A stretch of DNA of 64,000 nt from Bacteroidales bacterium (GCA_017550525.1 JAFZOU010000011.1:42719-106718), one strand, 5' to 3'. Shown: positions 5,239 to 61,935, counted from the first letter of the stretch. Program-made: numbers and translations. Notes: a model not told the origin generated them from the letters alone.

Positions 5239-5248
5239 ATATCTATGA

Positions 5249-6676
5249 TTATTTGTGTTCTCTCCAGAATTTGGTCATTTCCTCAAGGGTCTTGCCCTTT
5301 GTTTCAGGGACAAGGCGCCATACAAAGACGGCCGCTATGAGACAGATTACACCGTAAAGCGCATAGGCAAAGAAGGGGCTGCGGGTGTACATGGGCACAA
5401 AAGTACTGGACACGATAAAGTTGAACACCCACTGGAAGGCCACTGCGGCTGCGGTTGCACGGCTGCGGATGGTGTTGGGGAAGAGTTCTGCTATGTAAAC
5501 CCAGCAGATGGGGCCCCAGCTGAACATGAAGCAGGCGCTGTAGAGCATGATGCTCACAACTGGCACAAGGGCCGGCATTGTGTAAACATTGCTGAGAGCC
5601 ACTCCAAAAGCGCCCACTGCCATACCCAGGGAACCCGTGATAAGGAGGGGCTTACGGCCCAGTTTCTCAACGGTAAACACCGCCACAAGGGTGAAGGTGA
5701 TGTTGATTACACCCATAAGGACCGTCTGGAACATAGGGTCACCCATTCCCATGGACTCAAAGATACGCGGCGCAAAATACAGCACTGCATTTATGCCGAT
5801 AATCTGCTGGAACACGGACAGCATACATCCGATGAACACAACCAGGAAACCAAAAGCAAAGAGTTTGTCGTGTTTGCGCTTGGCCTCTGCGTTCACGGTG
5901 GACTTGATATTTGCAAGGATTTCCCTGGCGCGGGCTTCACCGTTAATGTTGGAAAGCACGGTTAGAGCCTTCTCCTCATGGCCGTGGATAGCAAGGTAAC
6001 GCGGCGTTTCCGGAACCAGCAGGATAAGGAGTGCAAACAGCCCGGCGGGAACGGCCTCTGATACAAACATCACCCTCCAGCCAATGGCATTGGTCCAGGC
6101 AACAACGTTAGGGTCAGACGCGTGGGAACGCACAATGAGGAAGTTCACAAAGTACACAACCAGCTGACCAAAAATGATGGCAAACTGGTTCCATGACACA
6201 AGCCTTCCCCTCTTTGAAGCCGGCGCAACCTCTGCGATATACATAGGGCACAGGGCCGATGCCAGTCCCACGCCTATTCCTCCCAGTATGCGGTAGCCGT
6301 TGAATGCCGCCAGAAGGCCCTTGCAGGCAACTCCCTTCTCAAAGAAGAGGAATTCCGGATTGTAGGAGCCCAGGGCGCTCAGGAGGAAAAGGATACCCGC
6401 CACAAAGAGGGTCTTCTTCCTGCCAAGGTAAAGGGCTAATCGGCCCGAAATAATTGCACCGATAATACAGCCGATGAGGGCGCTGGATGTTGTGAATCCG
6501 TGGAGGGCGTCCGTGTAGTCAAAATCCGCCGCACCGCGGAAAAACGCCTGCAGACCCTTCTCTGCGCCTGAAATGACTGCGGTGTCATATCCAAAGAGGA
6601 GACCGCCGATGACGGCCACCAGCACGATGGCAATGAGGTAGGCGTAACTCCCCTTTTGCCTGTAACTATTTTGCAT
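5249..6676 (-). CDS. xylE: MFS sugar porter, D-xylose:proton symporter-like
   Basis: 12-TM sugar-porter signatures are present (GRKKTL, PETPRYL, PESKGKTLEE-like C-terminus). It lies directly downstream of xylA. I chose the start ATG at 6676 (MQNSYRQKG). The track's longer start at 6811 would run about 145 nt into xylA. Confidence 0.85.
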   Translation of the reverse strand: MQNSYRQKGSYAYLIAIVLVAVIGGLLFGYDTAVISGAEKGLQAFFRGAADFDYTDALHGFTTSSALIGCIIGAIISGRLALYLGRKKTLFVAGILFLLSALGSYNPEFLFFEKGVACKGLLAAFNGYRILGGIGVGLASALCPMYIAEVAPASKRGRLVSWNQFAIIFGQLVVYFVNFLIVRSHASDPNVVAWTNAIGWRVMFVSEAVPAGLFALLILLVPETPRYLAIHGHEEKALTVLSNINGEARAREILANIKSTVNAEAKRKHDKLFAFGFLVVFIGCMLSVFQQIIGINAVLYFAPRIFESMGMGDPMFQTVLMGVINITFTLVAVFTVEKLGRKPLLITGSLGMAVGAFGVALSNVYTMPALVPVVSIMLYSACFMFSWGPICWVYIAELFPNTIRSRATAAAVAFQWVFNFIVSSTFVPMYTRSPFFAYALYGVICLIAAVFVWRLVPETKGKTLEEMTKFWREHK

Positions 6677-7982
6677 AGAGTGAGAGGAGGGTTTCGTAAA
6701 GTTCCTGTTTTCCGGAAGCAGCAACGGGCTCACCGGCTTTCTTTGCATAGTCATAAAGCTCCTCAAGGGAAGCCTTCCCTTCCTCGAACTTCTTTCCAAG
6801 GCCGCTGTCAAAGCTTGCGTAGCGCTCCTTCACCATTGCAGGGATGGGGCTCTTTTCAAGCACTGCGGCAGCATTGAGGAGGGCGTGGGCGATGGTGTCC
6901 ATGGCGCTCACGTGGGCGATGAAGATATCCTCGGGGTCAGTTGAGCTTCTGCGGAGCTTGGCGTCAAAATTGAAACCGCCGTTATGCAGGCCGCCGTTAC
7001 GGATAATCTGCATCATGGCCTGGGTGAGTTCAAGGTCGTCGATGGGGAACTGGTCAGTGTCCCAGCCGTTCTGGGCGTCTCCGCGGTTGGCGTCAACGCT
7101 GCCAAGGAAGCCGTTGTCCACGGCTACGGTGAGTTCATGCTCGAAGGTGTGGCCGGCAAGGGTTGCGTGGTTCACCTCTATATTCACCTTGAAGTCCTTT
7201 TCAAGGCCGTTGGCGCGAAGGAAGCCGATAACGGTCTCCGTATCTACGTCGTACTGGTGCTTGGTGGGCTCCATGGGCTTGGGTTCAATGAGGAAAGTGC
7301 CCTTGAAGCCGTTCTTACGGGCATAGTCGCGGGCCGCGGTGAGCATCTTTGCAAGGTGGTCCTTCTCCCTCTGCATCTGGGTGTTGAGAAGGGTGTAATA
7401 ACCCTCACGGCCACCCCAGAACACGTAGTTGGAGCCTCCAAGTTTGATTGTGGCGTCAAGGGCGTTCTTAATCTGGACGGCCGCGCGGGCAACAATATCA
7501 AACTGAGGGTTGGTGGCGGCGCCGTTCATATAGCGCTTGTGACCAAAGACATTTGCGGTGCCCCAGAGATTCTTGATGCCGGTTTCCTTCATCTTCTCAA
7601 GGAGATAGTCCGTGATGTCCTTCATGCGGGCCTCATACTCCGCTATATCGTCGCAGTCCTCCACAAGGTCAATGTCATGGAAGCAGAAATACTCTATTCC
7701 AAGCTTCTGCATAAGCTCAAAGCCGGCATCGGCCTTTGCCTTGGCGCGGCAGTAGGGGCATTCTCCCTTGTCCCATTCATAAGAGCGGGTCTGGCCGCCA
7801 AAAGGGTCTCCGGATGCCTGGCCCAGGGTGTGCCACCAGGCCATTGCAAATTTGAGCCACTCTTTCATGGGTTTACCCATCACCATGCGCTCAGGCTCAT
7901 AATAATGGAAAGCAAGGGGATTGACGCTCTCCGGTCCTTCAAACTGGATTTTTCCTATTCCGGGAAAAAATTCTTTTGCCAT
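6666..7982 (-). CDS. xylA: xylose isomerase (class II)
   Basis: 438 aa. The N-terminus MAKEFFPGIGKIQFEG..NPLAFHYY, FAMAWWHT, FCFHD and the NHATLAGHTFEHE catalytic region are all characteristic. Confidence 0.95.
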   Translation of the reverse strand: MAKEFFPGIGKIQFEGPESVNPLAFHYYEPERMVMGKPMKEWLKFAMAWWHTLGQASGDPFGGQTRSYEWDKGECPYCRAKAKADAGFELMQKLGIEYFCFHDIDLVEDCDDIAEYEARMKDITDYLLEKMKETGIKNLWGTANVFGHKRYMNGAATNPQFDIVARAAVQIKNALDATIKLGGSNYVFWGGREGYYTLLNTQMQREKDHLAKMLTAARDYARKNGFKGTFLIEPKPMEPTKHQYDVDTETVIGFLRANGLEKDFKVNIEVNHATLAGHTFEHELTVAVDNGFLGSVDANRGDAQNGWDTDQFPIDDLELTQAMMQIIRNGGLHNGGFNFDAKLRRSSTDPEDIFIAHVSAMDTIAHALLNAAAVLEKSPIPAMVKERYASFDSGLGKKFEEGKASLEELYDYAKKAGEPVAASGKQELYETLLSLYAK

Positions 7983-7986
7983 TTTG

Positions 7987-9468
7987 TTATAGTGTTAAAT
8001 GTGATTTCCAACGCTGATATGCCACCCTGTAGAGGTCTTCATTACTGGGAGTTATCACTTCCAACCTCTCAAGGGTGGAGAATGCCTCACGGCTATCCTT
8101 ATATATGCCGGCGCCTATTCCTGCGCCCTTTGCGGCTCCAACGGATCCGTCCGTATTGTAAAGTTCAATGGTTGCTCCGGAAACGCCCGCAAGGGTGTCC
8201 CTGAAGATGGCGCTCTGGAACATATTGGCAAGACCGGCGTGAATCTTGTCCACCTTGAGGCCCATCTCCTGCATTATCTCAATTCCGTATTGGAAGGAGA
8301 ACACAATTCCTTCCTGGGCGGCCCTCAGGAGATGCTCCCTGCCGTGACGGTTGAAATTCACTCCGTGCACGCTGCAGCCGGTTTCCTTATTGCAGAGCAT
8401 CCTTTCCGCTCCGTTCCCGAAAGGAAGGATGGATACGCCTTCACTGCCGATAGGCGCCTTGGATGCCAGTTCATTCATCTGGACATATGAAAGGCCCTCC
8501 GGGGCAACGTTACGGCGCATCCAGGAGTTAAGGATGCCGGTACCATTGATGCAGAGAAGGACGCCAAGGCGGGGATCCTCAAAGCTATGGTTAACGTGCG
8601 CAAAGGTATTCACGCGTGACTGAGGGTCATAGTTAACCTCCCCTATTACACCGTAAACAACTCCTGAAGTGCCTGCCGTGGAGGCAATCTCCCCGGGATT
8701 GAAGACATTGAGGCTTAGGGCGTTGTTTGGCTGGTCTCCGGCACGGTAAGTGACGGGGATGCCTTCTTTGAGCCCAAGAGCCTTCGCTGCCTCTGCGGTA
8801 AGGTATCCCTGAATGCCGAACGTAGGTCTTCTCTGGGGAAGAATGGTCTCATCAAAGCCAAAATATTCCAGAAGTTCCTTTGAGGGAGCGTTTTCCCTGA
8901 AATCCCAGAAGATTCCTTCAGAAAGGCCGCTCACAGTGGTGCACACGCTTCCTGTAAGACGCATTGCGATGTAGTCTCCGGGAAGCATAATCTTCCATAT
9001 CCGTTCATACAGGGAGGGCTCGTTCTCCTTCACCCAGGCCAGCTTTGCAGCCGTGAAATTACCGGGAGAATTAAGAAGGTGCTCCAGGCAGAAATCCTGT
9101 CCCAGGGCCTCTGCGGCCGCATTTCCGTATGGAACAGCGCGGGAGTCGCACCATATTATGGATGGCCTCAGGACATTCATATCCTTGTCCACACACACAA
9201 GCCCGTGCATCTGATAGGATATGCCGATGGCCTTGACGTCACGGGCGCTTTCCCCTGCCTCTTGAAGCTGATGGAGGACATCGGCCGTAGCAAGGCGCAG
9301 GTTTCCCACCCACATTGCGGGATCCTGCTCTGCCCATCCGGGCTGTTTTGAAATAATGGGGGCTTCCTTTTCAGGATAGAATGCTGTGGCTATGCACTTA
9401 CCGGTAAGGGCGTCTACCACCGACGCCTTAACGGAAGAGCTGCCGATATCATAACCAAGCAGAAACAT
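7987..9468 (-). CDS. xylB: xylulokinase (FGGY carbohydrate kinase)
   Basis: 493 aa. It has the FGGY N-terminus LLGYDIGSSSVKASV and lies upstream of xylA in the same operon. Confidence 0.9.
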   Translation of the reverse strand: MFLLGYDIGSSSVKASVVDALTGKCIATAFYPEKEAPIISKQPGWAEQDPAMWVGNLRLATADVLHQLQEAGESARDVKAIGISYQMHGLVCVDKDMNVLRPSIIWCDSRAVPYGNAAAEALGQDFCLEHLLNSPGNFTAAKLAWVKENEPSLYERIWKIMLPGDYIAMRLTGSVCTTVSGLSEGIFWDFRENAPSKELLEYFGFDETILPQRRPTFGIQGYLTAEAAKALGLKEGIPVTYRAGDQPNNALSLNVFNPGEIASTAGTSGVVYGVIGEVNYDPQSRVNTFAHVNHSFEDPRLGVLLCINGTGILNSWMRRNVAPEGLSYVQMNELASKAPIGSEGVSILPFGNGAERMLCNKETGCSVHGVNFNRHGREHLLRAAQEGIVFSFQYGIEIMQEMGLKVDKIHAGLANMFQSAIFRDTLAGVSGATIELYNTDGSVGAAKGAGIGAGIYKDSREAFSTLERLEVITPSNEDLYRVAYQRWKSHLTL

Positions 9469-9471
9469 ATG

Positions 9472-9545
9472 TCGGGGTGATGTGACTCGAACACACGACC
9501 CTCTGGTCCCAAACCAGATGCGCTAGCCAACTGCGCCACACCCCG
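9472..9545 (-). tRNA. tRNA-Pro (anticodon UGG)
   Basis: The reverse complement reads CGGGGTG-TG-GCGC-AGTTGGCTA-GCGC-A-TCTGG-TTTGGGA-CCAGA-GGGTC-GTGTG-TTCGAGT-CACAT-CACCCCG-A. This is a full 74-nt cloverleaf with anticodon TGG. CCA is not encoded. Confidence 0.95.
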
Positions 9546-9555
9546 ATTAAGTATA

Positions 9556-9587
9556 CAAAGATACTCTTTTTTACCCGTTTCTCCAAA
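9556..9587 (-). promoter_or_regulatory. Bacteroidota-type promoter (-33 TTTG / -7 TAtcTTTG) upstream of tRNA-Pro
   Basis: On the minus strand, TTTG lies at 9587-9584 and TATCTTTG at 9563-9556, 20 nt apart. The -7 box ends 10 nt before the tRNA 5' end. Confidence 0.55.
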
Positions 9588-9595
9588 TGGAGCCA

Positions 9596-11251
9596 CTACC
9601 TTCCGCCACCGCCGAAGCCGCCGCCGGAGAAGCCGCCACCGCCGCCAAAGGAGGCGTGACCGCCGGTGCCGTTGATGTTGCCGGCCTTGGCTATGGCATT
9701 ACCGAATGAGCGGGTGCTCATATTGTTGGTCCAGAGAACCATGTAGGTGAAGCGGTCGGAATCCATGCCGGTGCTGCGGGCAACTTCCTCATAGATTGAC
9801 GGATACAGTTTCTTGAACTGCTTGGCAACTTTCTCCGCAATTCCAAAGAGCTGGGCAAACACCAGATAATCCTTCCAGAGGCCAACCTCGTTGGAGGCTC
9901 TTTCGCCGCTTAATGTGAAGTCCTTCAGGAAGTTACGGAACTCTATGAGATGACATGTCTGCTGCTGGCCTTCCGTGGTGCAGGTGCCTTCAGAGAGGAA
10001 GTAGCCCTTGTCACGGAACCAGGTTTTGCCGCGTGCGATGGCGCGTTCCGGCCAGGCCGTCATCTTCTTGTAGTTCTTGGTGGACCACTTCTCGAACTCG
10101 TTCTTCTCCAGGATCCTGTTGTCTCCGGCGGCGCTGAGGGCCCACTGGTAGAGGTCTTCCTCTACGTCGTCCATACTGGCGGTATCGGCCTCAAAGAGAA
10201 GATTCACGCGTTTATCCGACTTTGGATCCGGCTGCACCTTCAGTTTTCCGTCCATGATCCAGCGGAGGAAAAACGCTCCTATGATATTCTGAGCCGGGGT
10301 ATTATTACCAAAGCGGGCGCCTTTTGCAAGGGTATATTCTGCCGCAAAGAGGTTCCCGTCCAGGGGTATATCCCTGTACCAGCCGTCAATCTTGGTGCGT
10401 CCGAAGATGGACTTTTTCCACTTGTATCCAAGGGCCGATGCAATGGCAACGTATAATATAAGGAATATTCCGCCGATGAAGATAAGGGCAAAACCTATGA
10501 GGAACCACTTCTCTGCGGGATCGTCCTCTCCGTAAGAGCTGTCTTCCAGGGCCTTGTCGATGAGATCCTGTACGGGACCGCCTTTGATTACCTCAGGCTC
10601 AAAGATACCCTTTTCAAACTTCACGGCGGTTATGAGCTTTGAATTGTAGTCCATTGACTCCGAGGTTTCCGCCACAACCTTTCCGCCCTTGACGTTGATG
10701 TCTCCGTAGAAGCCGAAAGCCCATACGCGGGTGTTGTCGTAGGTCCACTGAGGGCAGTCAAAGGAAGGGCTGATAGTAACTTTCACGTGCTCCGGGGCAT
10801 CAGGCATGCCGGGATTCACGAACATGAAGTTGAAGGCATCGGCATCATCGTAAGCCTGTACAAGGCCGGTTAGGACAAAGGTGACCTCCCAGACATGAGG
10901 GCCGGTTTCTCCAAGGCCCCAGCAAAGTTCCACGCCGTTACGCTTACGCACGATGCCGCACTTCCCGGTTTTCCAACTGCGGGAACGGTCCACGTCCCAT
11001 TTGTCGCCAAGGCTTTGCATAGGAACGCCGTTGTCCTTGACGCTGAGGGAGCCGATGGTCATGGGGCCAAGGTTTTCCACAGGGATATACCACTCCGTGT
11101 TGTCTGAGGATACGCGCATGTCCCAGCGCTGGGTAACTACCGCGCTGCCGTCCTTGTTCACGGCAACGTTTATGTCAAGGTCACGGACCTCATGGGCAAA
11201 CGCCGCAGCGCAGAGCGCCGCGGCTGCAACAAGAGCAAAAAGCCGTTTCAT
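9596..11251 (-). CDS. DUF2207-family membrane protein with a Gly-rich C-terminal tail
   Basis: 551 aa with a signal peptide, a central TM segment and the C-terminus GGGGFSGGGFGGGGR. It lies immediately downstream of a LemA gene, which is the usual LemA-DUF2207 pairing. Confidence 0.7.
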   Translation of the reverse strand: MKRLFALVAAAALCAAAFAHEVRDLDINVAVNKDGSAVVTQRWDMRVSSDNTEWYIPVENLGPMTIGSLSVKDNGVPMQSLGDKWDVDRSRSWKTGKCGIVRKRNGVELCWGLGETGPHVWEVTFVLTGLVQAYDDADAFNFMFVNPGMPDAPEHVKVTISPSFDCPQWTYDNTRVWAFGFYGDINVKGGKVVAETSESMDYNSKLITAVKFEKGIFEPEVIKGGPVQDLIDKALEDSSYGEDDPAEKWFLIGFALIFIGGIFLILYVAIASALGYKWKKSIFGRTKIDGWYRDIPLDGNLFAAEYTLAKGARFGNNTPAQNIIGAFFLRWIMDGKLKVQPDPKSDKRVNLLFEADTASMDDVEEDLYQWALSAAGDNRILEKNEFEKWSTKNYKKMTAWPERAIARGKTWFRDKGYFLSEGTCTTEGQQQTCHLIEFRNFLKDFTLSGERASNEVGLWKDYLVFAQLFGIAEKVAKQFKKLYPSIYEEVARSTGMDSDRFTYMVLWTNNMSTRSFGNAIAKAGNINGTGGHASFGGGGGFSGGGFGGGGR

Positions 11252-11797
11252 CTAGATTTCCGGGTAATCTTTCTTGGAAACGTCGTCGGCAAGGTAATCA
11301 CGCTTTGCAAAGCCAAGGATTCCGGCCACCAGGGAGGTGGGGAATACGCGCACCTGCTGGTTGAAGCGGGTTACGGTGTCGTTGAAGGTCATGCGGGACA
11401 GGCGGACGTTTTCCTCATAGTCCTTGATGTCCTTCATTGTCTGCTGGTAGTTGGCGCTGGCCTTGAGATCCGGGTAAGCCTCTGCCACGGCGATGAGTTT
11501 GGCGCCGATTGCGGCAAGGGCTTCTTCGTTGGCGTTAATATCGGCCGCAGTGGGATTGGGAGAAGAGACAATCTTACGCTCCTTCACAATTTTCTCAAGG
11601 GTATCGGCCTCATAGGAAGCATATTCCCTGGTGAGTTTGATGAGGGCCTTCAGGGCATCGAAACGACTGATCTGCTGGACGTTGATCTGCTTCAAGGCAT
11701 TGTTGCAGAGTTCGTCGCTTTTCACAAGGCGGTTCTGAACGCCGATGATCCAGATTACAAGGACTGCCAGGACGGCAAGGATAATAGCTAAAGTCAT
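11252..11797 (-). CDS. lemA: LemA family protein
   Basis: It has an N-terminal TM helix (MTLAIILAVLAVLVIWIIGVQNRLV) followed by LemA-type helical repeats (YPDLKASANYQQ, FNDTVTRFNQ). I chose the start at ATG 11797. The track extension to 12022 has no support. Confidence 0.85.
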   Translation of the reverse strand: MTLAIILAVLAVLVIWIIGVQNRLVKSDELCNNALKQINVQQISRFDALKALIKLTREYASYEADTLEKIVKERKIVSSPNPTAADINANEEALAAIGAKLIAVAEAYPDLKASANYQQTMKDIKDYEENVRLSRMTFNDTVTRFNQQVRVFPTSLVAGILGFAKRDYLADDVSKKDYPEI

Positions 11798-11872
11798 AGT
11801 ACAGTTTATTTTATTATGCGAATATACAAAATTTGCATAAATTTGCGAATAGAATAAACGTTTATTACACAT

Positions 11873-12610
11873 ATGAAAACAAACCAGGAATTCAAGAATG
11901 CCGCCCTTGACGCACTTCGCGGCAATTGGGGAAAAGCCGTTGTGGCTACACTCGTCTATGTGCTTATCCTTTCTTTCATAACCGGCCCTACGGTTTATAG
12001 CACCACCCGGGTCCAGAAGCAACTGACCGATCTTGCCGCCACTTCTCCCACCGGATATCAGGCAGCAGCACTTATAACCTCCCCTGAATTCATCGCCCTC
12101 CAGAAAACGGCCACCCGCACCAGCGGTATCTCCACCCTGTTGCAGTTCCTGCTGGTCCTGCCCCTCTCCCTTGGCTTCCTGAATGCATTCCGGAAACTTC
12201 TTGTAGCCAGAGACAGCCAGATTCTATCCAACACTTTCCGTATCGGCTTCAGTAATTACTGGCACAAGGTATGGGGTATGCTCCTTATGACAATCATGGT
12301 ATTCCTGTGGTCCCTCCTTCTCATTATTCCCGGAATCATCAAGTGGTTCTCATATGCCATGACCCCCTTCATTCTGGAGGAGAACCCTGAACTTGGAGCC
12401 TCGGATGCCATTCACCGCAGCCGCATGATGATGCGCGGCCACAAGTTTGACCTCTTCTATCTGTACCTGAGCTTCATCGGCTGGTTCATCCTGTGCATCT
12501 TCACCGCCGGTATCGGTTTCCTGTGGCTTGGCCCTTACGTGGACACCGCCATCGCCGCCTTCTATGAGGAGGTCAAGGCCGATTACGCCCTCAACGGCGG
12601 CCTGGACTAA
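11873..12610 (+). CDS. DUF975-family integral membrane protein
   Basis: 245 aa. The N-terminus NQEFKNAALDALRGNWGKAV and the MMMRGHKFDLFYLYLSFIGW region are typical of DUF975. Confidence 0.65.
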   Translation: MKTNQEFKNAALDALRGNWGKAVVATLVYVLILSFITGPTVYSTTRVQKQLTDLAATSPTGYQAAALITSPEFIALQKTATRTSGISTLLQFLLVLPLSLGFLNAFRKLLVARDSQILSNTFRIGFSNYWHKVWGMLLMTIMVFLWSLLLIIPGIIKWFSYAMTPFILEENPELGASDAIHRSRMMMRGHKFDLFYLYLSFIGWFILCIFTAGIGFLWLGPYVDTAIAAFYEEVKADYALNGGLD

Positions 12611-12615
12611 TCCCT

Positions 12616-12753
12616 TTGCCGTGTTGACGGCTAAAACGCGTATAAGGCCGATTCCGGAGCCAACACGGCAAGGAAATCGGCCTTTTTCCGTGAAATTGCT
12701 GCCGTGTTGACGCAAAATCGCCGCTACAGGCAATCTGAGTGTCAACACGGCAA
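12616..12753 (+). repeat. REP/MITE-like structured intergenic repeat, copy A
   Basis: It has two inverted-repeat modules: TTGCCGTGTTG 12616-12626 with CAACACGGCAA 12661-12671, and GCCGTGTTGAC 12701-12711 with GTCAACACGGC 12741-12751. It also contains a terminator-like stem AAGGCCGATTCC 12644-12655 / GGAAATCGGCCTT 12672-12684 followed by TTT. By eye it is roughly 90 percent identical to copies B and C. Confidence 0.9.
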
Positions 12754-12756
12754 AAC

Positions 12757-13671
12757 CTACAGTACCAGGCATCGGCTTATCTGAGCATCGGACACGTGGA
12801 AATCGTATTTCAACTGGCGGGCGATGCGCATTTTCTGGGAATCAGTGAGCTGATACACGGAAGTGGCTCCGAACGGACGGCACAGTTCCCTGTCAATGAG
12901 CATACAGACATCCAGATCCTGGAGGCGTGTCCTGTCGAAGTTCCTGCCGTACTCATTCTTAAGCATCTGGGCCACGGTGTTTTCATCGGCCTGTTCTATG
13001 TCGGAAATAGTCAGCGGTGCTCCGGTATTGTCTTTCAGTTGTTCCTTCAGCCAGGAGTCGTCGGACAGGCGGTTCATCTGATAGAGGTAGTTCCTTGGGG
13101 TGCTGAAAAACTGTTCCGCCCGCCTGAGTTCCATAAAACTGCGGCGGACAAACACACCGCGCTCGTTCATCTGAAATGAATCCGGGAATTCGGCGTGCCG
13201 TGGGAGATTGCTGGAAATATCACTTCTTGACATAGGCACGGCCTCATCCCCGCATAGTCCTATATCCTGCGCGAACATATCCCTTACACTGCAGAAAAGA
13301 TAGCCGAATGCTGTAGGGGCGGCTCCGTGGTGAAGACCGTTCCTAAGTATATAGGACAGCATTGTCAGTATATGGTACAGTCCCAGTACTATAGCCACAA
13401 AGGTATACTTCTGCCCAAATCTCCCCCTGCGGCCGTACTTGGTGTTGAAGTACTTGGTGTAGGACATCCTTTCCCGTCGGGCAAACTCTGACGGATTATC
13501 CGTGAACACTCCCTGATGCACGTGAGTGGACATCTCGGCATCGGCAAGTATTTCCGTTCCGGTGGAGAATGACTGAAGTGCCATCAGGTTTACAAATACA
13601 TCGTGGTCTTCCCGGTCCCTGAACATAACCTCGTCGTGGGAAGTAAAACAGATATGGTAGGTCTCCTTCAT
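12757..13671 (-). CDS. IS200-like HUH/Y1 transposase homologue (RAYT-like, COG1943-type) with a C-terminal HTH-like tail
   Basis: 304 aa. The N-terminal block YHICFTSHDEVMF.DREDHDVF, a HUH-like motif STHVHQG and a Tyr-rich block SYTKYFNTKYGRRGRFGQ (candidate catalytic Tyr) fit the Y1 transposase fold. The C-terminus QLTDSQKMRIARQLKYDFHVSDAQISRCL looks like an HTH. The stop lies 3 nt from repeat copy A. Confidence 0.65.
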   Translation of the reverse strand: MKETYHICFTSHDEVMFRDREDHDVFVNLMALQSFSTGTEILADAEMSTHVHQGVFTDNPSEFARRERMSYTKYFNTKYGRRGRFGQKYTFVAIVLGLYHILTMLSYILRNGLHHGAAPTAFGYLFCSVRDMFAQDIGLCGDEAVPMSRSDISSNLPRHAEFPDSFQMNERGVFVRRSFMELRRAEQFFSTPRNYLYQMNRLSDDSWLKEQLKDNTGAPLTISDIEQADENTVAQMLKNEYGRNFDRTRLQDLDVCMLIDRELCRPFGATSVYQLTDSQKMRIARQLKYDFHVSDAQISRCLVL

Positions 13672-13819
13672 GGCGGCAAGTTACTGCACCGAAGGCGTTC
13701 TATCAAGGGGGTGCTCATAACTTGTGTTGTTTCACGTGAAATATTTTACGTTTTTTGTGATTTTGGTGGGAAAGACCATGTTTTTTGCTAAATTTGAAGT
13801 GTTTATAAGACGTGTCCAT

Positions 13820-14428
13820 ATGAAAAAACTGCTTCTCATATCGCTTGCGGCCTGCGCATTAATGGCCTGCAACCAGCCGGCACAGAAGAATCCCGGCGCT
13901 TCTTTTGACGAAGTACTCACCACCCGCCGCAGCGTCCGCGCCTATGACGCATCAAAGACTATCTCGGAATCGGAGGTCCGCGAACTCCTTCTTGCCACTC
14001 AGGAGGCCCCGTCCTGGGCCAACCAGGAACCCAGCAAGTATTATGTAGCTGTTGGCGGAGAAAAGCACGCCGCCCTCCTTGAGATGATAGGCGGCAACAA
14101 GGACAGGGTTGCCAATGCCCCCGTACTCATTGTCTCCACATATGAAAAGGGCAAGTCCGGCTTCTTCCGCGGAACGGCCACCAATGAGATAGAGGACGGC
14201 TGGGGCGCCTATGACAACGGACTCAGCAACGCCTACCTTATTCTCAAGGCCAGGGCTATGGGCTTTGACACGCTCATAATGGGGATGCGTGACAGCGACG
14301 CCATCCGCGCCTGCCTGGATATCCCGGAGAATGAAGCCATTATGGCCGTGATAGCCCTTGGGTACCGCGCGCAGGAGCCATCCAGGCCGCAGAGAAGACC
14401 TCTTGATGACGTAGTGCGATTCTTCTGA
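13820..14428 (+). CDS. nitroreductase-family protein with a lipoprotein-type signal peptide
   Basis: Signal peptide MKKLLLISLAACALMACNQ, followed by nitroreductase motifs (TRRSVRAYD, AYLILKARAMGFDT). I chose the start at ATG 13820 rather than the track start at 13724. Confidence 0.8.
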   Translation: MKKLLLISLAACALMACNQPAQKNPGASFDEVLTTRRSVRAYDASKTISESEVRELLLATQEAPSWANQEPSKYYVAVGGEKHAALLEMIGGNKDRVANAPVLIVSTYEKGKSGFFRGTATNEIEDGWGAYDNGLSNAYLILKARAMGFDTLIMGMRDSDAIRACLDIPENEAIMAVIALGYRAQEPSRPQRRPLDDVVRFF

Positions 14429-14439
14429 CGGCGTTCGCC

Positions 14440-14577
14440 GTGCCGTGTTGACGGCTAAAACGCGTAAAAGGCCGATTCCGGAGCCAACACGGCAAGGAAA
14501 TCGGCCTTTTTCCGGAAAATCGCTGCCGTGTTGACACAAAAACGCCTCTACAAGCAATCTGAGTGTCGACACGGCAA
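14440..14577 (+). repeat. REP/MITE-like structured intergenic repeat, copy B
   Basis: It has the same architecture and orientation as copy A. It starts 12 nt after the nitroreductase stop and ends about 30 nt before the next gene's ATG. Confidence 0.9.
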
Positions 14578-14607
14578 ACTGTCCGGAAAAATACCTATCT
14601 TTACACC

Positions 14608-15567
14608 ATGTTCAAAGTTGGAATAATCGGTGCCGGGCACATCGCAGAGAAGGCGGCCCGCACGCTTCAGGCAATGGAAGATATGACCTGCATTGCCATC
14701 GGTTCACGTTCTGAGGAGAAGGCTCTGGCCTTTGCCGGGCGCTTTGACATTCCCCGGGCATACGGGTCATACGCTGCACTGCTGGAGGACCCTGATATAG
14801 ACCTTGTGTATATAGCCGTACCGCACTCATGCCACTTTGGAGTGACACGTGACGCCATCCTTGCCGGGAAGCCCTGCCTTGTGGAGAAGTCCTTTATGCT
14901 CAATGCCACAGAAGCGGCAGAAATCATTGCCCTGGCCCGTGAGAAAGGCGTTTTTGTGGGAGAAGCCATATGGCCGCGGTATATGCCGGTAAGGGAGATC
15001 GGCCGTAAACTTTTGGAGTCCGGCATCATTGGAGAACCCCGTATGGTCCAGGCCACCCTGGCTTACAATGTGTCCGACAAAGAGCGCATCATTAGTCCGG
15101 AACTTGGCGGAGGCGCCCTTCTGGATCTTGGAGTTTATCTTCTGAACTTTGTGAGAATGTACTTTGATGCACCGGTCTCACAGATTAACACCACCTGCGT
15201 CAAGGCCCCTAGCGGGGTAGATGCATCCGAGCAGGTTACAATGGTTCTTTCCGATGGCACCCTGGCTTCTCTGGACTGCTCTGCCTGGTGCCAGGGAGGC
15301 AACGAGGCCGTCATAGCCGGCACCACCGGCTACCTTGTCTTTGACGATCTTATCAATCCCAAGACCGTTAACGTTTGCCGTAAACGCCATATAGTGGAGA
15401 AGACCGTAGCCGTGCCTGATCAGATTACCGGCTTCGAGTATCAGTTCCGTGCCTGCCGGGATGCAATTGCAGCCGGATCCCTGGAGCCATCGGCTATGCC
15501 CCACGCAGAAATCCTATACATTATGCATCTTATGGACCGCCTCCGCGCGGAATGGGGTACGGCATAG
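14608..15567 (+). CDS. Gfo/Idh/MocA-family NAD(P)-dependent oxidoreductase
   Basis: Rossmann N-terminus MFKVGIIGAGHIAEK and the EKSF motif (PCLVEKSFMLN) are present. I chose ATG 14608, because the track's GTG at 14563 lies inside repeat copy B. Confidence 0.85.
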   Translation: MFKVGIIGAGHIAEKAARTLQAMEDMTCIAIGSRSEEKALAFAGRFDIPRAYGSYAALLEDPDIDLVYIAVPHSCHFGVTRDAILAGKPCLVEKSFMLNATEAAEIIALAREKGVFVGEAIWPRYMPVREIGRKLLESGIIGEPRMVQATLAYNVSDKERIISPELGGGALLDLGVYLLNFVRMYFDAPVSQINTTCVKAPSGVDASEQVTMVLSDGTLASLDCSAWCQGGNEAVIAGTTGYLVFDDLINPKTVNVCRKRHIVEKTVAVPDQITGFEYQFRACRDAIAAGSLEPSAMPHAEILYIMHLMDRLRAEWGTA

Positions 15568-15574
15568 TGCCTTC

Positions 15575-15662
15575 GTGGACCTGGCCCAGCCGCTTTGTGG
15601 ACTTGGTATGGCCCATGTGTGGACCTGGTCCAACCCCTGCGTGGACCTGGTCCAGGGCATGC
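15575..15662. repeat. 22-bp x4 tandem repeat carrying the palindrome TGGACC-T-GGTCCA
   Basis: Units start at 15575, 15597, 15619 and 15641 (GTGGACCTGGCCCA, GTGGACTTGGTATG, GTGGACCTGGTCCA, GTGGACCTGGTCCA). The period is exactly 22 bp. Confidence 0.85.
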
Positions 15663-15694
15663 GGCAGTGTGCAACGACGTGCGACAGCGGCCAC

Positions 15695-15832
15695 CGGCCG
15701 TGTTGACGGCTATAACGCGTATAAGGCCGATTCCAGTGCCAACACGGCAAGGAAATGGGCCTTTTTCCGCCAAAACGCTGCCGTGTTGACGCAAAAACGC
15801 CGCCACAGGCAATCTGAGTGTCAACACGGCAA
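15695..15832 (+). repeat. REP/MITE-like structured intergenic repeat, copy C
   Basis: It has the same architecture and orientation as copies A and B. It lies in the convergent spacer between the oxidoreductase and uvrA. Confidence 0.9.
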
Positions 15833-15981
15833 GCACGGAGGCTTATCGGCCGGTGCCCTTCGGACGGCATAGCCGCCCGTGGCTTCGTGAACGGGAGGGG
15901 CCCAGAGGCCGTGCTATGCACGGACGCATGGGAGGGATAGGGCCGAAGGTCCGTACCGGTCCGAAGTGCACTGGCCGAAAC

Positions 15982-18732
15982 CTACAGAACGTCCTTGAGG
16001 TACGGGCCGGTGACGGAGGCGGGGTCTGAGGCAAGCTGTTCCGGGGTGCCCTGGGCAACTATCCAGCCACCGCGACGGCCGCCTTCCGGTCCCATGTCAA
16101 AGAGGTAGTCGACACTCTTGAGCACATCCAGATTGTGCTCTATTATGATGATGGTATTTCCTGCTTCCACAAGCCTCTGGAGTACTCCAAGAAGCACTTT
16201 TATATCCTCAAAGTGAAGGCCGGTAGTGGGCTCGTCAAGAATATACAGGGTATTCCCCGTGGAAGGGCGTGAGAGCTCTGCGGCCAGTTTCATGCGCTGG
16301 CTCTCACCGCCGGAAAGGGTGATGGCGCTCTGGCCAAGGCGCACATACCCAAGGCCCACATCCATCATGGCCTTCAGTTTTGCGGCAATCTTGGGAACGG
16401 GCTTGAAGAACTCGTAGGCCTCGGAAATGGACATTTCCAGGACGTCGTTGATGTTCTTTCCCTTATACCTCACGGCCAGGGTATCCTCATTGTAGCGCCT
16501 TCCGCCGCAGGTTTCGCAAGGAACGTGCACGGACGGCAGGAAGTTCATCTCAATGACCTTGATGCCGGCGCCCTTGCATTCCTCGCATCGGCCTCCGGGG
16601 ACGTTGAAGGAGAATCGGCCGGCCTTATATCCGCGAACTTTGGCGTCCGGCGTTTCCTCAAAGAGGGTACGTATGTCATTGAACACGCCCGTGAAAGTTG
16701 CCGGATTTGAGCGGGGCGTACGGCCGATAGGGCTCTGGTCTATCTCTATGAGCTTGTCTATATTCTCTATGCCTTCGATGGACGCGTACGGAAGAGGACG
16801 CTCCTTGGAGCGGTAGAACTTCTGCTTCAGGATGGGCATGAGGGTCTCGTTCACAAGGGAACTCTTACCGGAACCGGAAAGGCCTGCAACACCAATGAGG
16901 CAACCAAGCGGGAAACTCACATCCACGCTCTTGAGGTTATTGCCCGTTGCGCCGCGGAGAGTAAGATATTTGCCGTTTCCAGGCCTCCTGGCCGCCGGAA
17001 CATCAATTCTGCGCTTCCCCCGCAGATAATCAAGCGTAAGGGACTTGCCCTTTTTCAGAAGTTCCTTCAACGGCCCGTTCAGGCATATCCTGCCGCCGTT
17101 TTCTCCGGCACCAGGGCCCACATCCACAAGCCAGTCGGCGCTCATCATGGTCTCTGCGTCGTGTTCCACAACCATCACGGAATTGCCCTCGTCCCGCAGT
17201 GCCTTCAGTGACGCTATGAGCTTACGGTTATCCTTCTGATGAAGGCCGATAGAAGGCTCGTCAAGTATATACAGCACATTCACCAGCTTGGAGCCTATCT
17301 GGGTTGCCAGGCGGATGCGCTGGCTCTCACCTCCGGAAAGGGACCCTGTGGGGCGGTCCAGCGACAGATAGTCAAGGCCCACGTCCAGCATGAACCGAAC
17401 GCGCTCACGGAGCTCCTTGAGGATGTCCCTGGACACATTCAGTTCCTTCTGGTTAAAGCCTTCCGGAATCTTTTCCAGCCATGCGGAAAGTTCAGAAATC
17501 TCCATTGCAGAGACCTCTGAAATGGTTTTTCCGTCCACCCTGAAGCACATTGCCTCCTTGTTGAGACGGGTGCCGCCGCACACGGGGCACACCACGGTGT
17601 CCTCAATATTCTCAATGACTCCGCCCCAGGTTTCCATCTCCGTGAGATTCCCCTCTCCTACGCGGAAAAGGTCCTCGGAGCCATACACAAGAAGGCTCAC
17701 TACCTCGTCAGGCAGGGTGCCGATGGGATCGTACAGGCTGAACCCGTATTTACGGGCAATGGCGCGTATTATATCGAACTTTCGGTTTTCACGGACCTTT
17801 CCCAGGGGCACTATGCCGCCATCGGCCACGCTCCTGGAGCGGTCCGGAATGATTGTGTCTATGTTCACGTCCACAATGGTCCCCAGGCCCTTGCAGTGAG
17901 GGCAGTACCCCTGCGGGGAGTTGAAGGAGAAACTATGGGGCTGCGGCTCCTGGAGGGAAAGCCCGCTCTGAGGGTCTACAAGGTGCTTGGAATAGTGGGA
18001 AATCTCTCCGCTTTCAACGTCAAGGATTGCTACGGAGCCCTTTCCAAGGCCGATAGCCTTCCCCACCGAGTCCCTCACCCGGCGGTCGTCCCCCGCCTCA
18101 GGTATAAGGCGGTCCACTACCAGTTCAATGAAGTGCGGCTTATAGCGGTCAAGGGCCATCTCCGGCACGACGTCCTGGATTTCACCGTCTATACGGACCT
18201 CCATATAACCGCGCTTTCGGAGCTGTTCAAACAGTTCACGGTAATGTCCTTTTCGGCCCCTGACAAGCGGTGCCAGAAGATAGCATTTCCGGCCCGCGAA
18301 CTTGTTCATTATGAGGTCTACAATCTGGGAATCGTTGTAGCGGACCATCTCAAGGCCGGTTTCCGGGGAAATGGCCCTGGAGCCTTTGGCATATAGTAGC
18401 CTAAGGAAGTCATAAATCTCAGTGATTGTGCCAACCGTGGAGCGGGGATTGTTCCCGGTGGTTTTCTGTTCTATGGCAATGATGGGACTGAGGCCTGTAA
18501 TTTCCTCAACCTCCGGCTTTTCCAGTATGCCCATAAAATGTTTGGCATACGTGGAGAGGGTGTCCATATAGCGGCGCTGGCCCTCTGCGTAAAGAGTATC
18601 GAAGGCCAGAGAGCTCTTGCCGCTGCCACTGAGCCCGGTAACCACCACAAACTGCCCGCGGGGGATGTCTACATCTATCCCCTGCAGGTTGTTTGCCCTT
18701 GCTCCGCGAATCTCAATGAAGTCTTTTGCCAT
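15982..18732 (-). CDS. uvrA: excinuclease ABC subunit A
   Basis: Two ABC ATPase modules (GLSGSGKSSLAFDT; GLSGSGKSSLVNET; LSGGESQRIRLA; LSGGESQRMKLA) and Zn-finger Cys pairs are present. I prefer ATG 18732 (MAKDFIEIRGAR) over the TTG at 18741. Confidence 0.95.
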   Translation of the reverse strand: MAKDFIEIRGARANNLQGIDVDIPRGQFVVVTGLSGSGKSSLAFDTLYAEGQRRYMDTLSTYAKHFMGILEKPEVEEITGLSPIIAIEQKTTGNNPRSTVGTITEIYDFLRLLYAKGSRAISPETGLEMVRYNDSQIVDLIMNKFAGRKCYLLAPLVRGRKGHYRELFEQLRKRGYMEVRIDGEIQDVVPEMALDRYKPHFIELVVDRLIPEAGDDRRVRDSVGKAIGLGKGSVAILDVESGEISHYSKHLVDPQSGLSLQEPQPHSFSFNSPQGYCPHCKGLGTIVDVNIDTIIPDRSRSVADGGIVPLGKVRENRKFDIIRAIARKYGFSLYDPIGTLPDEVVSLLVYGSEDLFRVGEGNLTEMETWGGVIENIEDTVVCPVCGGTRLNKEAMCFRVDGKTISEVSAMEISELSAWLEKIPEGFNQKELNVSRDILKELRERVRFMLDVGLDYLSLDRPTGSLSGGESQRIRLATQIGSKLVNVLYILDEPSIGLHQKDNRKLIASLKALRDEGNSVMVVEHDAETMMSADWLVDVGPGAGENGGRICLNGPLKELLKKGKSLTLDYLRGKRRIDVPAARRPGNGKYLTLRGATGNNLKSVDVSFPLGCLIGVAGLSGSGKSSLVNETLMPILKQKFYRSKERPLPYASIEGIENIDKLIEIDQSPIGRTPRSNPATFTGVFNDIRTLFEETPDAKVRGYKAGRFSFNVPGGRCEECKGAGIKVIEMNFLPSVHVPCETCGGRRYNEDTLAVRYKGKNINDVLEMSISEAYEFFKPVPKIAAKLKAMMDVGLGYVRLGQSAITLSGGESQRMKLAAELSRPSTGNTLYILDEPTTGLHFEDIKVLLGVLQRLVEAGNTIIIIEHNLDVLKSVDYLFDMGPEGGRRGGWIVAQGTPEQLASDPASVTGPYLKDVL

Positions 18733-61439: not shown

Positions 61440-61584
61440 GGCCGATTGCCGTGTTGACAGCCAAACCACCTTCTACGGCCACTTTCATTGCCGACACGGC
61501 AACAAAATCGGCCTTTTCCCCGGAAAACGCAGCCATGTTGACACTAAAAACCCAATTCTGAGCCATCTAACCGTCAACACGGCC
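61440..61584 (+). repeat. REP/MITE-like structured intergenic repeat, divergent copy D
   Basis: GGCCGATTGCCGTGTTGAC ... CCGACACGGCAACAAAATCGGCCTTTT ... GCCATGTTGAC ... GTCAACACGGC. It has the same module order and orientation as copies A to C, but more substitutions. Confidence 0.75.
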
Positions 61585-61621: not shown

Positions 61622-61635
61622 CAGTCCCACATTTT

Positions 61636-61933
61636 GCCTTGGTGGTGGAATGGTAGACACGAGGGACTTAGACACAATTGAGTGCTCTCTCTGAAAAGAG
61701 AGATGCAGAATGCCGTAAATTCAAGGAAACCATAACGGGTAACGCCGATGGCAATCTTGAGCCAAGCCTTTGAGAGAAGGAAGGTGCAGAGACTAGACAC
61801 GGCACACCTAAAGAGCATAGCTCCAAGGTGAAGGAATAGTCCAGACCACAAACAGAAATGGTGGCGAAAGCCATAGTGGTAAGAAAATCCCTTGGCCCGA
61901 AACGGCCGTGCGGGTTCGATTCCCGCCCGAGGC
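61636..61933 (+). tRNA. tRNA-Leu (anticodon UAA), split by a group I intron (exons 61636-61669 and 61883-61933)
   Basis: The joined exons give an 85-nt class II tRNA. Its parts are acceptor GCCTTGG/CCGAGGC (one G-U), D arm GTG-GAATGGTAGA-CAC, anticodon stem AGGGA/TCCCT, loop CTTAAAA, a long variable arm (GGCC..GGCC), T arm GCGGG-TTCGATT-CCCGC and discriminator A. Confidence 0.9.
61670..61882 (+). ncRNA. group I self-splicing intron (IC3-like), 213 nt, no internal ORF
   Basis: It is inserted between U34 and A35. P1 pairs ACTT with GAGT (61680-61683), giving U-G at the splice site. Also present are P2 CTCTCT-GAAA-AGAGAG, P3 TGCCG/CGGCA, the core string GGAAGGTGCAGAGACTAGAC, P7 GACTA/TAGTC, P8 CACCT..AGGTG, P9 TGGC-GAAA-GCCA and a terminal G at 61882. 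Confidence 0.85.
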
Positions 61934-61935
61934 AC

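Follow-up and report, generated by a model that had tools for sequence, protein, structure and literature searches.

The 64,000-nucleotide stretch of Bacteroidales DNA analysed here (GCA_017550525.1, JAFZOU010000011.1:42719-106718), referred to as the window, carries four copies of an intergenic repeat, each a dimer of hairpin units. Copy 1 (12617–12754, plus strand; unit 1 hairpin 12618–12669, unit 2 hairpin 12701–12751) is placed between the stop codon of a DUF975 gene (12610) and that of a minus-strand gene (12757). Copy 2 (14441–14578, plus strand) lies 12 nt 3' of the stop codon of a nitroreductase gene, with a Gfo/Idh/MocA gene directly downstream, and copy 3 (15696–15833, plus strand) lies between the convergent Gfo/Idh/MocA and UvrA-like genes. 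The diverged copy 4 (61448–61583, plus strand) is 3' of an SDR gene and 5' of a tRNA-Leu gene that a group I intron interrupts. The distance from stop codon to element is 6–12 nt for copies 1 and 2, about 100 nt for copy 4 and 128 nt for copy 3. The preliminary description of this DNA had reported three near-identical 138-bp copies and a diverged fourth, intergenic and in a single orientation, each 3' of a plus-strand gene. All of this holds. Copies 1–3 share 91–93% pairwise identity over 138 nt in a repeat search of the window, copy 4 aligns to the others at 78% identity over a 73-nt core, all four are on the plus strand, and Pfam confirmed the upstream DUF975, nitroreductase, Gfo/Idh/MocA and SDR genes.

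The 11-mer GCCGTGTTGAC, with at most one mismatch, occurs 16 times on both strands of the window, against 0.83 expected, a count reached by none of 100 shuffles. Fifteen of these 16 matches fall within the four elements. Each element has four such boxes in the order +,−,+,− at a spacing of ~41 bp, a pattern that bears out the earlier reading of two hairpin modules built from one 11-mer and its reverse complement. The arrangement is real and not an assembly artefact, since it recurs at 99.99% identity in three independent contigs from ENA metagenomes; no element variation was seen among strain-level contigs identical to the window.

Two other features of the window were noted. Within the 919-aa UvrA-like gene, direct repeats at 16203–16319 and 17229–17342, ~1,025 bp apart, are the two halves of an ordinary ABC ATPase. 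Downstream of copy 4, the tRNA-Leu(UAA) gene (61630–61935) is split after U34, which we take to be the classical intron position of cyanobacteria and plastids. The intron (61660–61864) matches Rfam RF00028 at 54.6 bits, and the split tRNA was not called by ARAGORN. In two related MAGs (loci L027 and L038) the intron has an extra 517 bp with a 188-aa ORF bearing HNH endonuclease motifs, which is absent in the window and in L008.

The basic unit of the repeat is a ~52-nt hairpin with a G+C-rich stem of 11–14 bp (TGCCGTGTTGAC/GTCAACACGGCA) and a loop of ~30 nt (26–31 nt as measured), repeated every 82 bp. Either strand of the element folds much better than shuffled sequences (z about −6.5). The minimum-energy fold contains the 14-bp unit 2 hairpin, a central hairpin and, at box 1, a minor one. 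The central hairpin, AAGGCCGATTCC...GGAAATCGGCC (12644–12692, plus strand), is followed by TTTTT and, in the direction of the upstream gene, resembles a terminator. It and the unit 1 stem are mutually exclusive, because box 2 sits in the central loop. A simple terminator scan of the window did not call the elements because the loop of the central hairpin is longer than 8 nt. An Rfam covariance search of the elements gave nothing at the gathering score and, at E up to 1, a lone spurious 18.9-bit miRNA match. We also compared the two loops of each dimer for direct or inverted (REPIN-like) similarity. In the window, the direct reading gave 18–19 matches, equal to the 95th percentile of shuffles, and the inverted reading 15–16, at or just under the shuffle median; for the dimer of L068, the same comparison, an ambiguous test, favoured the inverted reading.

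The hairpin units are accompanied by other conserved parts. A 13-nt palindrome, TGGACCTGGTCCA, is present in three copies ~22–44 bp apart at 15576–15654. It recurs in seven further loci (L003, L013, L014, L026, L039, L053 and L054) as two or three tandem copies, usually directly beside hairpin elements, and from this placement it may be the accessory module of a mosaic, as in bacterial interspersed mosaic elements (BIMEs). In loci L065 and L066, a different conserved left part of ~50 bp accompanies the dimer.

To define the family more widely, we scanned 185,579 genomes, one per bacterial or archaeal species, with the two-box pattern GCCGTGTTGAC-N25-35-GYCRACACGGC. The scan returned 61 loci, 51 of which are in 10 rumen or gut Bacteroidales metagenome-assembled genomes (MAGs), among them RUG478, RUG722, RUG784, RGIG9187, RGIG3360 and Tb.RUG.384. 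The remaining matches were isolated, in unrelated taxa and slightly above a rough estimate of a handful by chance. The motif is thus not confined to one genome, and the repeats form a dispersed family in the intergenic DNA of one clade of rumen Bacteroidales. Each MAG has at least 6–13 sites, a lower bound because the scan required exact boxes and the MAGs are incomplete.

In the related MAGs, the module occurs singly, as dimers and in head-to-tail arrays of up to six units with a strict period of 82–83 bp (93 bp in one lineage). Clusters uncut by a locus end comprise 12 monomers, 36 dimers and five with 3–6 units. The unit is therefore the hairpin module with its 82-bp period, and the 138-bp element, originally taken as the unit, is a dimer. 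Some sites are stable: four related MAGs carry an element at the position equivalent to copy 4, and several other sites are likewise kept at orthologous positions in relatives. Others turn over, as with copy 3, which is absent from the orthologous site in Tb.RUG.384. This presence/absence polymorphism, which the preliminary description had proposed to look for, means that the repeats are not a fixed 3' UTR feature of all relatives.

The minus-strand ORF at 12757–13671, which ends 3 bp from copy 1 and was overlooked in the first reading of the window, encodes a divergent Y1 HUH (RAYT-like) protein of 304 aa. An early guess that it was a LysR-type regulator was wrong. Pfam, NCBIfam and PDB sequence searches with the protein gave no match even at E up to 10, and all of its 395 homologues, of ~304 aa, are unannotated. 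The HUH motif is H50-V-H52 (THVH) and the catalytic motif Y107-I-L-R-N111 (YILRNG); a helical C-terminal extension of ~190 aa follows. In an alignment of 44 homologues, H50, H52 and Y107 are invariant and N111 is conserved in at least 90%. The tyrosine motif is of the Y-x-x-x-N type, as in the RAYT class, and not the Y-x-x-x-Q of IS200, and is followed by G, not P.

The AlphaFold model of the protein (pLDDT 87.4, pTM 0.88) places HVH on a strand (50–57), with Y107 and N111 on a helix (98–109/111). In a Foldseek comparison with the PDB, the top 30 matches were all IS200/IS605 TnpA proteins (ISDra2, IS608 and Sulfolobus) or the E. coli RAYT–REP complex 4er8, at probability 1.0, target TM 0.51–0.63 and E from 9e-4 to 1.5e-2; unrelated folds appeared only from rank 31. 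A profile search of 1.84 billion representatives recovered 1,784 clusters (50% identity) at E up to 0.001. For ten distant members of the family, the best Pfam match was PF01797 (Y1_Tnp) in every case, above the gathering threshold in two. Since the window protein itself misses PF01797, this homology is only transitive. Together, the fold matches, the invariant motifs and the distant PF01797 matches place the protein, as judged from its sequence and predicted structure, on a far branch of the Y1 HUH superfamily. By homology, H50, H52 and N111 would hold the metal ion and Tyr107 would form the phosphotyrosine. The C-terminal 180 aa folded alone gave a poor model (pLDDT 68, pTM 0.34), whose best Foldseek match, DnaA at E = 2, is non-significant and serves as a lead only.

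The gene and the repeats are closely coupled. Searching the element-selected loci by tblastn yielded three homologues of the HUH protein. Those in L036 and L058 have elements on both flanks, L058 with arrays of six and seven units. In L030, an element abuts the stop codon and the next copy lies past the neighbouring nitroreductase gene, as in the window. We then considered loci selected by the protein only (L062, L063, L065/66, L067, L068, L075, L076 and L077; 62–70% protein identity). In all eight, an element of the same architecture starts −11 to +70 nt from the stop codon; four of the eight have an upstream element too, and further copies lie within a few kilobases. This clustering around the HUH gene, seen in the same form among homologues elsewhere, accounts for the striking local density, three copies in 3.2 kb, remarked on when the repeats were first described. 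A very distant family member, L073, on a short contig, has repeated inverted motifs upstream. No MAG has more than one copy of the HUH gene among the fetched loci. In the fetched loci of five MAGs with 6–13 element sites, no HUH gene was found; the gene may have been lost, the MAGs may be incomplete, or the repeats flanking the gene may deviate from the exact scan pattern.

In two of these lineages, the HUH gene adjoins restriction-modification functions: Eco57I/MmeI-type genes in L062 (3657–5787) and an EcoRI methylase with GmrSD/HNH in L063 (1312–3644). Such neighbours in two distant lineages suggest that the HUH gene tends to sit in variable regions of the genome.

The repeats of different lineages share a paired stem foot, (T)GCCG/CGGC(A), whereas the upper stem is lineage-specific. 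Seven variants were found (GTGTTGAC, GCGTTGAC, GCGTTTAC, GCCTCGAC, GCGATTGC, GCGTTTGC and GCCAATCC), and a change in one arm of the upper stem is always mirrored in the other. We quantified this covariation in 40 units from nine sources, the window and the eight loci. Of the stem cells, 90.9% pair, compared to 25–49% with a slid partner. Changes on both sides occur in eight of 14 stem pairs and in 60 cells versus 23 in shuffles; these cells are non-independent, and at least six stem switches are needed to account for them. Among the six central stem positions, five show double-sided changes only, and the sixth also has three G–U cells. The covariation fits a hairpin read on single-stranded DNA, and would also fit a single dimeric double-strand binder reading both arms. 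Protein and stem variant show no co-phylogenetic signal: the identity matrix of the lineages (62–70%) is star-like, and identities do not track stem type.

The region around the HUH gene is extensively rearranged among relatives. We compared window positions 5248–18723 with loci L014, L017, L029, L030, L040, L042 and L054, and at 84–94% DNA identity the relatives are collinear with the window only between elements. Five blocks can be distinguished: A (5248–9588), which ends with tRNA-Pro; B (9593–12753); C (12757–14436), which holds the HUH and nitroreductase genes; D, the Gfo/Idh/MocA gene; and E, the UvrA-like gene. With el standing for an element and B' for inverted B, the window reads A B el C el D el E, Tb.RUG.384 reads A el B' el D E, RUG722 reads A el B' el E and RGIG3360 reads A el B unit E. 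RUG478 reads A el B' el D el ... C el E, with the join between its stretches L014 and L030 unseen. Blocks are thus inverted, swapped or absent in these four relatives, and in the junction sequences every breakpoint falls within an element or at its border. Block C has different neighbours in the window and in RUG478, and is missing from the region in Tb.RUG.384, RUG722 and RGIG3360.

Filled and empty sites were also compared. The stop-codon end of the DUF2207 gene (9589–9592) is without an element in the window and carries a repeat dimer in four related MAGs, in RGIG3360 at the same tRNA-Pro–promoter junction and in the other three in rearranged contexts. Comparison of the filled site in L042 with the empty site of the window showed no target-site duplication. 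Loci L065 and L066, with 97% DNA identity and an identical HUH protein, show three differences. The HUH gene is followed by a monomer in one and a dimer in the other, a 3.7-kb inversion has inverted elements at both ends, and two convergent genes, overlapping in one strain, are separated in the other by an insertion of ~200 bp with a dimer. This insertion, too, lacks a target-site duplication.

The absence of target-site duplications at these two filled/empty pairs argues against a MITE mobilised by a DDE transposase. Of the likenesses first proposed, to REP/BIME or to MITE-like elements, the REP side is the one supported. A related possibility is that the boxes act as double-stranded terminal inverted repeats, read either by the C-terminal part of the HUH protein, in the manner of TIRYT/TIRtron systems, or by a DDE transposase. 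The arms are indeed 11–14 bp inverted repeats ~30 bp apart, and box spacings of 41 and 82–83 bp would bring each box to about the same side of the helix as the one before. Long RAYT relatives of subclass 2.1 (TIRYT), with a C-terminal HTH, are flanked by terminal inverted repeats, some of which make up repeat families (PMC6006769, PMC3733652), and DnaA is the best, if non-significant, fold match of the C-terminal part. However, no DDE transposase is encoded within 10 kb on either side, ten family members gave no Bac_DnaA_C, HTH_23, HTH_28 or other HTH Pfam match, and there is no TIRYT consensus GGGGWSAS. An intact N-terminal HUH domain with invariant catalytic residues argues for single-strand cleavage chemistry. 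We consider double-stranded recognition of the boxes quite improbable.

The gene–repeat–gene–repeat layout in a single orientation, together with repeat-bounded blocks that change order and orientation among relatives, is also what an integron-like or CRISPR-like array would show, with the repeats as attC-type sites or CRISPR repeats. This is extremely unlikely and is largely refuted. As read from the sequence, the boxes differ from the R''/R' cores of attC sites, RYYYAAC and GTTRRRY, neither an integrase nor a cas gene is encoded within 10 kb on either side, and tandem arrays of units without genes exist. Because the putative spacers are conserved from copy to copy, they are not those of a CRISPR array.

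Could the enzyme have lost its role in mobility? In that case, the HUH protein would be fully domesticated, with a replication- or nucleoid-linked binding function, and the repeats would spread only by slippage and homologous recombination. The gene is apparently single-copy and strongly conserved, its family of 1,784 clusters is large, the repeats number just tens per genome, and most of the rearrangements are the expected products of recombination between repeats. Against this, insertions into repeat-free sites, between the convergent genes of L066 and, in relatives, after the DUF2207 gene, call for a transposition-like step, and the catalytic tyrosine and HUH residues are invariant. Full domestication is, in our judgement, very unlikely. 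Ordinary RecA recombination between repeats could nonetheless give the rearrangements with no role of the enzyme, which weighs on any explanation that invokes one. At the other extreme, the family of ~300-aa HUH proteins and its repeats could act across the Bacteroidales as a recombination system for entire gene blocks as well as for the repeats. The enzyme would excise such blocks, the one with the HUH gene and a passenger nitroreductase gene included, and re-insert them, in either orientation, at resident elements. If true, it would do with an HUH enzyme and single-stranded DNA what integrons do when they shuffle cassettes; we think it unlikely.

The orientation of the repeats follows that of the genes. 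Full-length copies lie 3' of a co-oriented gene at ~9–10 independent sites, including both members of convergent pairs 3 kb apart. As both members of such close pairs fit, gene direction accounts for the orientation better than replication direction does. The hairpin and T-run lie on the sense strand of the upstream gene; T-run polarity follows the genes in L068 as well, although the intrinsic orientation of the element is opposite there. Bacteroidetes-type −7 promoter motifs (TAnnTTTG, for example TATCTTTG) occur directly beside element sites, in the window at 9546–9592 and 14579–14610. These motifs precede tRNA-Pro, tRNA-Leu and the Gfo/Idh/MocA gene; an element thus often stands between a terminator side and the promoter that follows.

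These observations could mean that the elements are simply transcription terminators or 3'-UTR RNA structures, kept, and perhaps spread, for ending or stabilising the upstream mRNA, with the HUH gene an incidental neighbour. The independent sites just 3' of co-oriented stop codons, the TTTTT after the central hairpin on that strand and the polarity in L068 all agree with such a role. It would leave unexplained the tandem arrays of 4–6 units, the constant match between lineage-specific stems and the copies on the flanks of the HUH gene, and the association with that gene in eight of eight loci; moreover, no Rfam family matches and the simple terminator scan calls no element. As the whole explanation, termination is distinctly improbable. 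A terminator role is compatible with REP/RAYT-like repeats as a secondary, co-opted function, and we infer that copies are retained when they terminate or stabilise the upstream transcript.

REP/RAYT systems are known from Proteobacteria, and REP or REPIN elements with their RAYT (TnpA_REP) protein reportedly constitute REPtrons (Nunvar 2010; Bertels & Rainey 2011; Ton-Hoang 2012; Quentin 2018). The window system shares with REPtrons short intergenic palindromic repeats that occur as singles, dimers and clusters, and one Y1 HUH gene with cognate repeats on its flanks and a tyrosine motif of the Y-x-x-x-N type. Also in common are a repeat variant for each gene lineage, the lack of target-site duplication and the presence of repeats at rearrangement breakpoints. 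It differs in its protein, which has 304 aa instead of ~150–200, is undetected by PF01797 and has the motifs THVH and YILRNG in place of [ND]HxH and Y-x-x-x-NP. Its repeats lack the GTAG tag and have loops of ~30 nt compared to the reported 2–20 nt. The strict 82-bp array period, the tens of copies per genome and the rumen Bacteroidales host are further differences.

In E. coli BIMEs, palindromic units alternate in orientation within mosaic clusters that have conserved linkers and accessory motifs. The present repeats resemble them in all of these respects, with a variable number of units and adjoining accessory motifs, but the unit sequences are unrelated, BIME units are much shorter (~35–40 bp) and the phylum is another. 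With IS200/IS605 elements such as IS608 and ISDra2, the system shares the fold of the catalytic domain and hairpin ends that are recognised on single-stranded DNA. Unlike those elements, the window gene is outside any discrete multi-copy insertion sequence and has no tnpB, and its tyrosine motif has N, not Q; genes of its type are apparently single-copy and divergent between genomes.

Published signatures set the system apart from the described subclasses. Canonical REPs have an unpaired GT[AG]G or CGTC at the foot of a 5–13 bp stem with a 2–20 nt loop (PMC3733652). Units of the window type have no GTAG or CGTC; their foot is the paired TGCCG/CGGCA and their loops are 26–31 nt. The survey of Y1 proteins by Quentin (2018, PMC6006769) started from PF01797 at E < 0.01, reports Y-x-x-x-N-P as the common signature of class 2, and assigns subclasses 1.2, 2.4 and 2.6 to Bacteroidetes, the last with 'atypical secondary structures'. 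Subclass 2.6 (RAYT group 5 of Bertels) is, like the window family, a Bacteroidetes family. Its proteins, however, have ~179 aa and the signatures NH[LIV]H, WQ and YIH[QN]NP (PMC6006769); the window protein carries none of these signatures. Subclass 2.1 (TIRYT/TIRtrons, RAYT group 1) is similar in its long Y1 proteins with a C-terminal, helical HTH-like extension (PMC3733652, PMC6006769) and in flanking inverted repeats, which in certain species make up families of moderate abundance, as dimers or clusters. It is distinguished by the motifs NHVH and YIELNP, by GGGGWSAS and by Bac_DnaA_C, HTH_23 or HTH_28 matches, none of the latter two being found here; in addition, most subclass 2.1 genes have no nearby repeats, whereas eight of eight have them here. 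Among the literature joining REPIN, RAYT and Bacteroid*, the works listed were these two surveys (PMC6006769 and PMC3733652). We therefore class the system as REP/RAYT-like in its working; its protein fits none of the described subclass signatures.

Taken together, the repeats are probably REP-like, non-coding hairpin elements tied to the dedicated Y1 HUH enzyme encoded at 12757–13671 on the minus strand. From its homology, the 304-aa protein most likely recognises and spreads them. On this view, repeat and protein are a Bacteroidales version of REP/RAYT systems, with a new, Pfam-invisible protein family and atypical repeats. Several points temper this explanation. Binding, cleavage and mobilisation are deduced from homology, the protein fails PF01797 directly and has no class 2 'NP' after its tyrosine motif, the repeats have no GTAG or CGTC tag and loops longer than those of typical REPs, and the five MAGs noted above have many sites and no HUH gene in their fetched loci.

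A possible sequence of events can be proposed. In single-stranded DNA, for example the lagging-strand template at a replication fork, the hairpins would be bound by the HUH protein, which would nick and rejoin the strand through the Tyr107 intermediate, with metal at H50, H52 and N111. Units could in this way be excised, inserted or duplicated without target-site duplication. The dispersed copies would then serve as recombination substrates, and the gene blocks between them could be inverted or relocated, block C with the HUH and nitroreductase genes among them. Copies whose hairpin and T-run point with the upstream gene would be retained, probably as terminators or 3'-end stabilisers.

What is new here is a large unannotated HUH family in Bacteroidales together with an atypical, lineage-specific hairpin repeat at rearrangement hotspots, with mobilisation of the repeat by the enzyme presumed. 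The finding gives a testable function and a name to many Bacteroidales 'hypothetical proteins' missed by Pfam, NCBIfam and PDB sequence searches, and extends REP/RAYT-type systems to gut and rumen Bacteroidales. The repeat architecture, a long-loop hairpin with a strict 82-bp period and no GTAG tag, would escape existing REP finders. For studies of the hairpin specificity of HUH enzymes, the seven stem variants found in nature and their respective proteins offer a ready set. Finally, the repeats are the breakpoints of frequent inversions and block shuffling in close strains, which bears on MAG assembly, synteny-based annotation and the genome plasticity of these bacteria.
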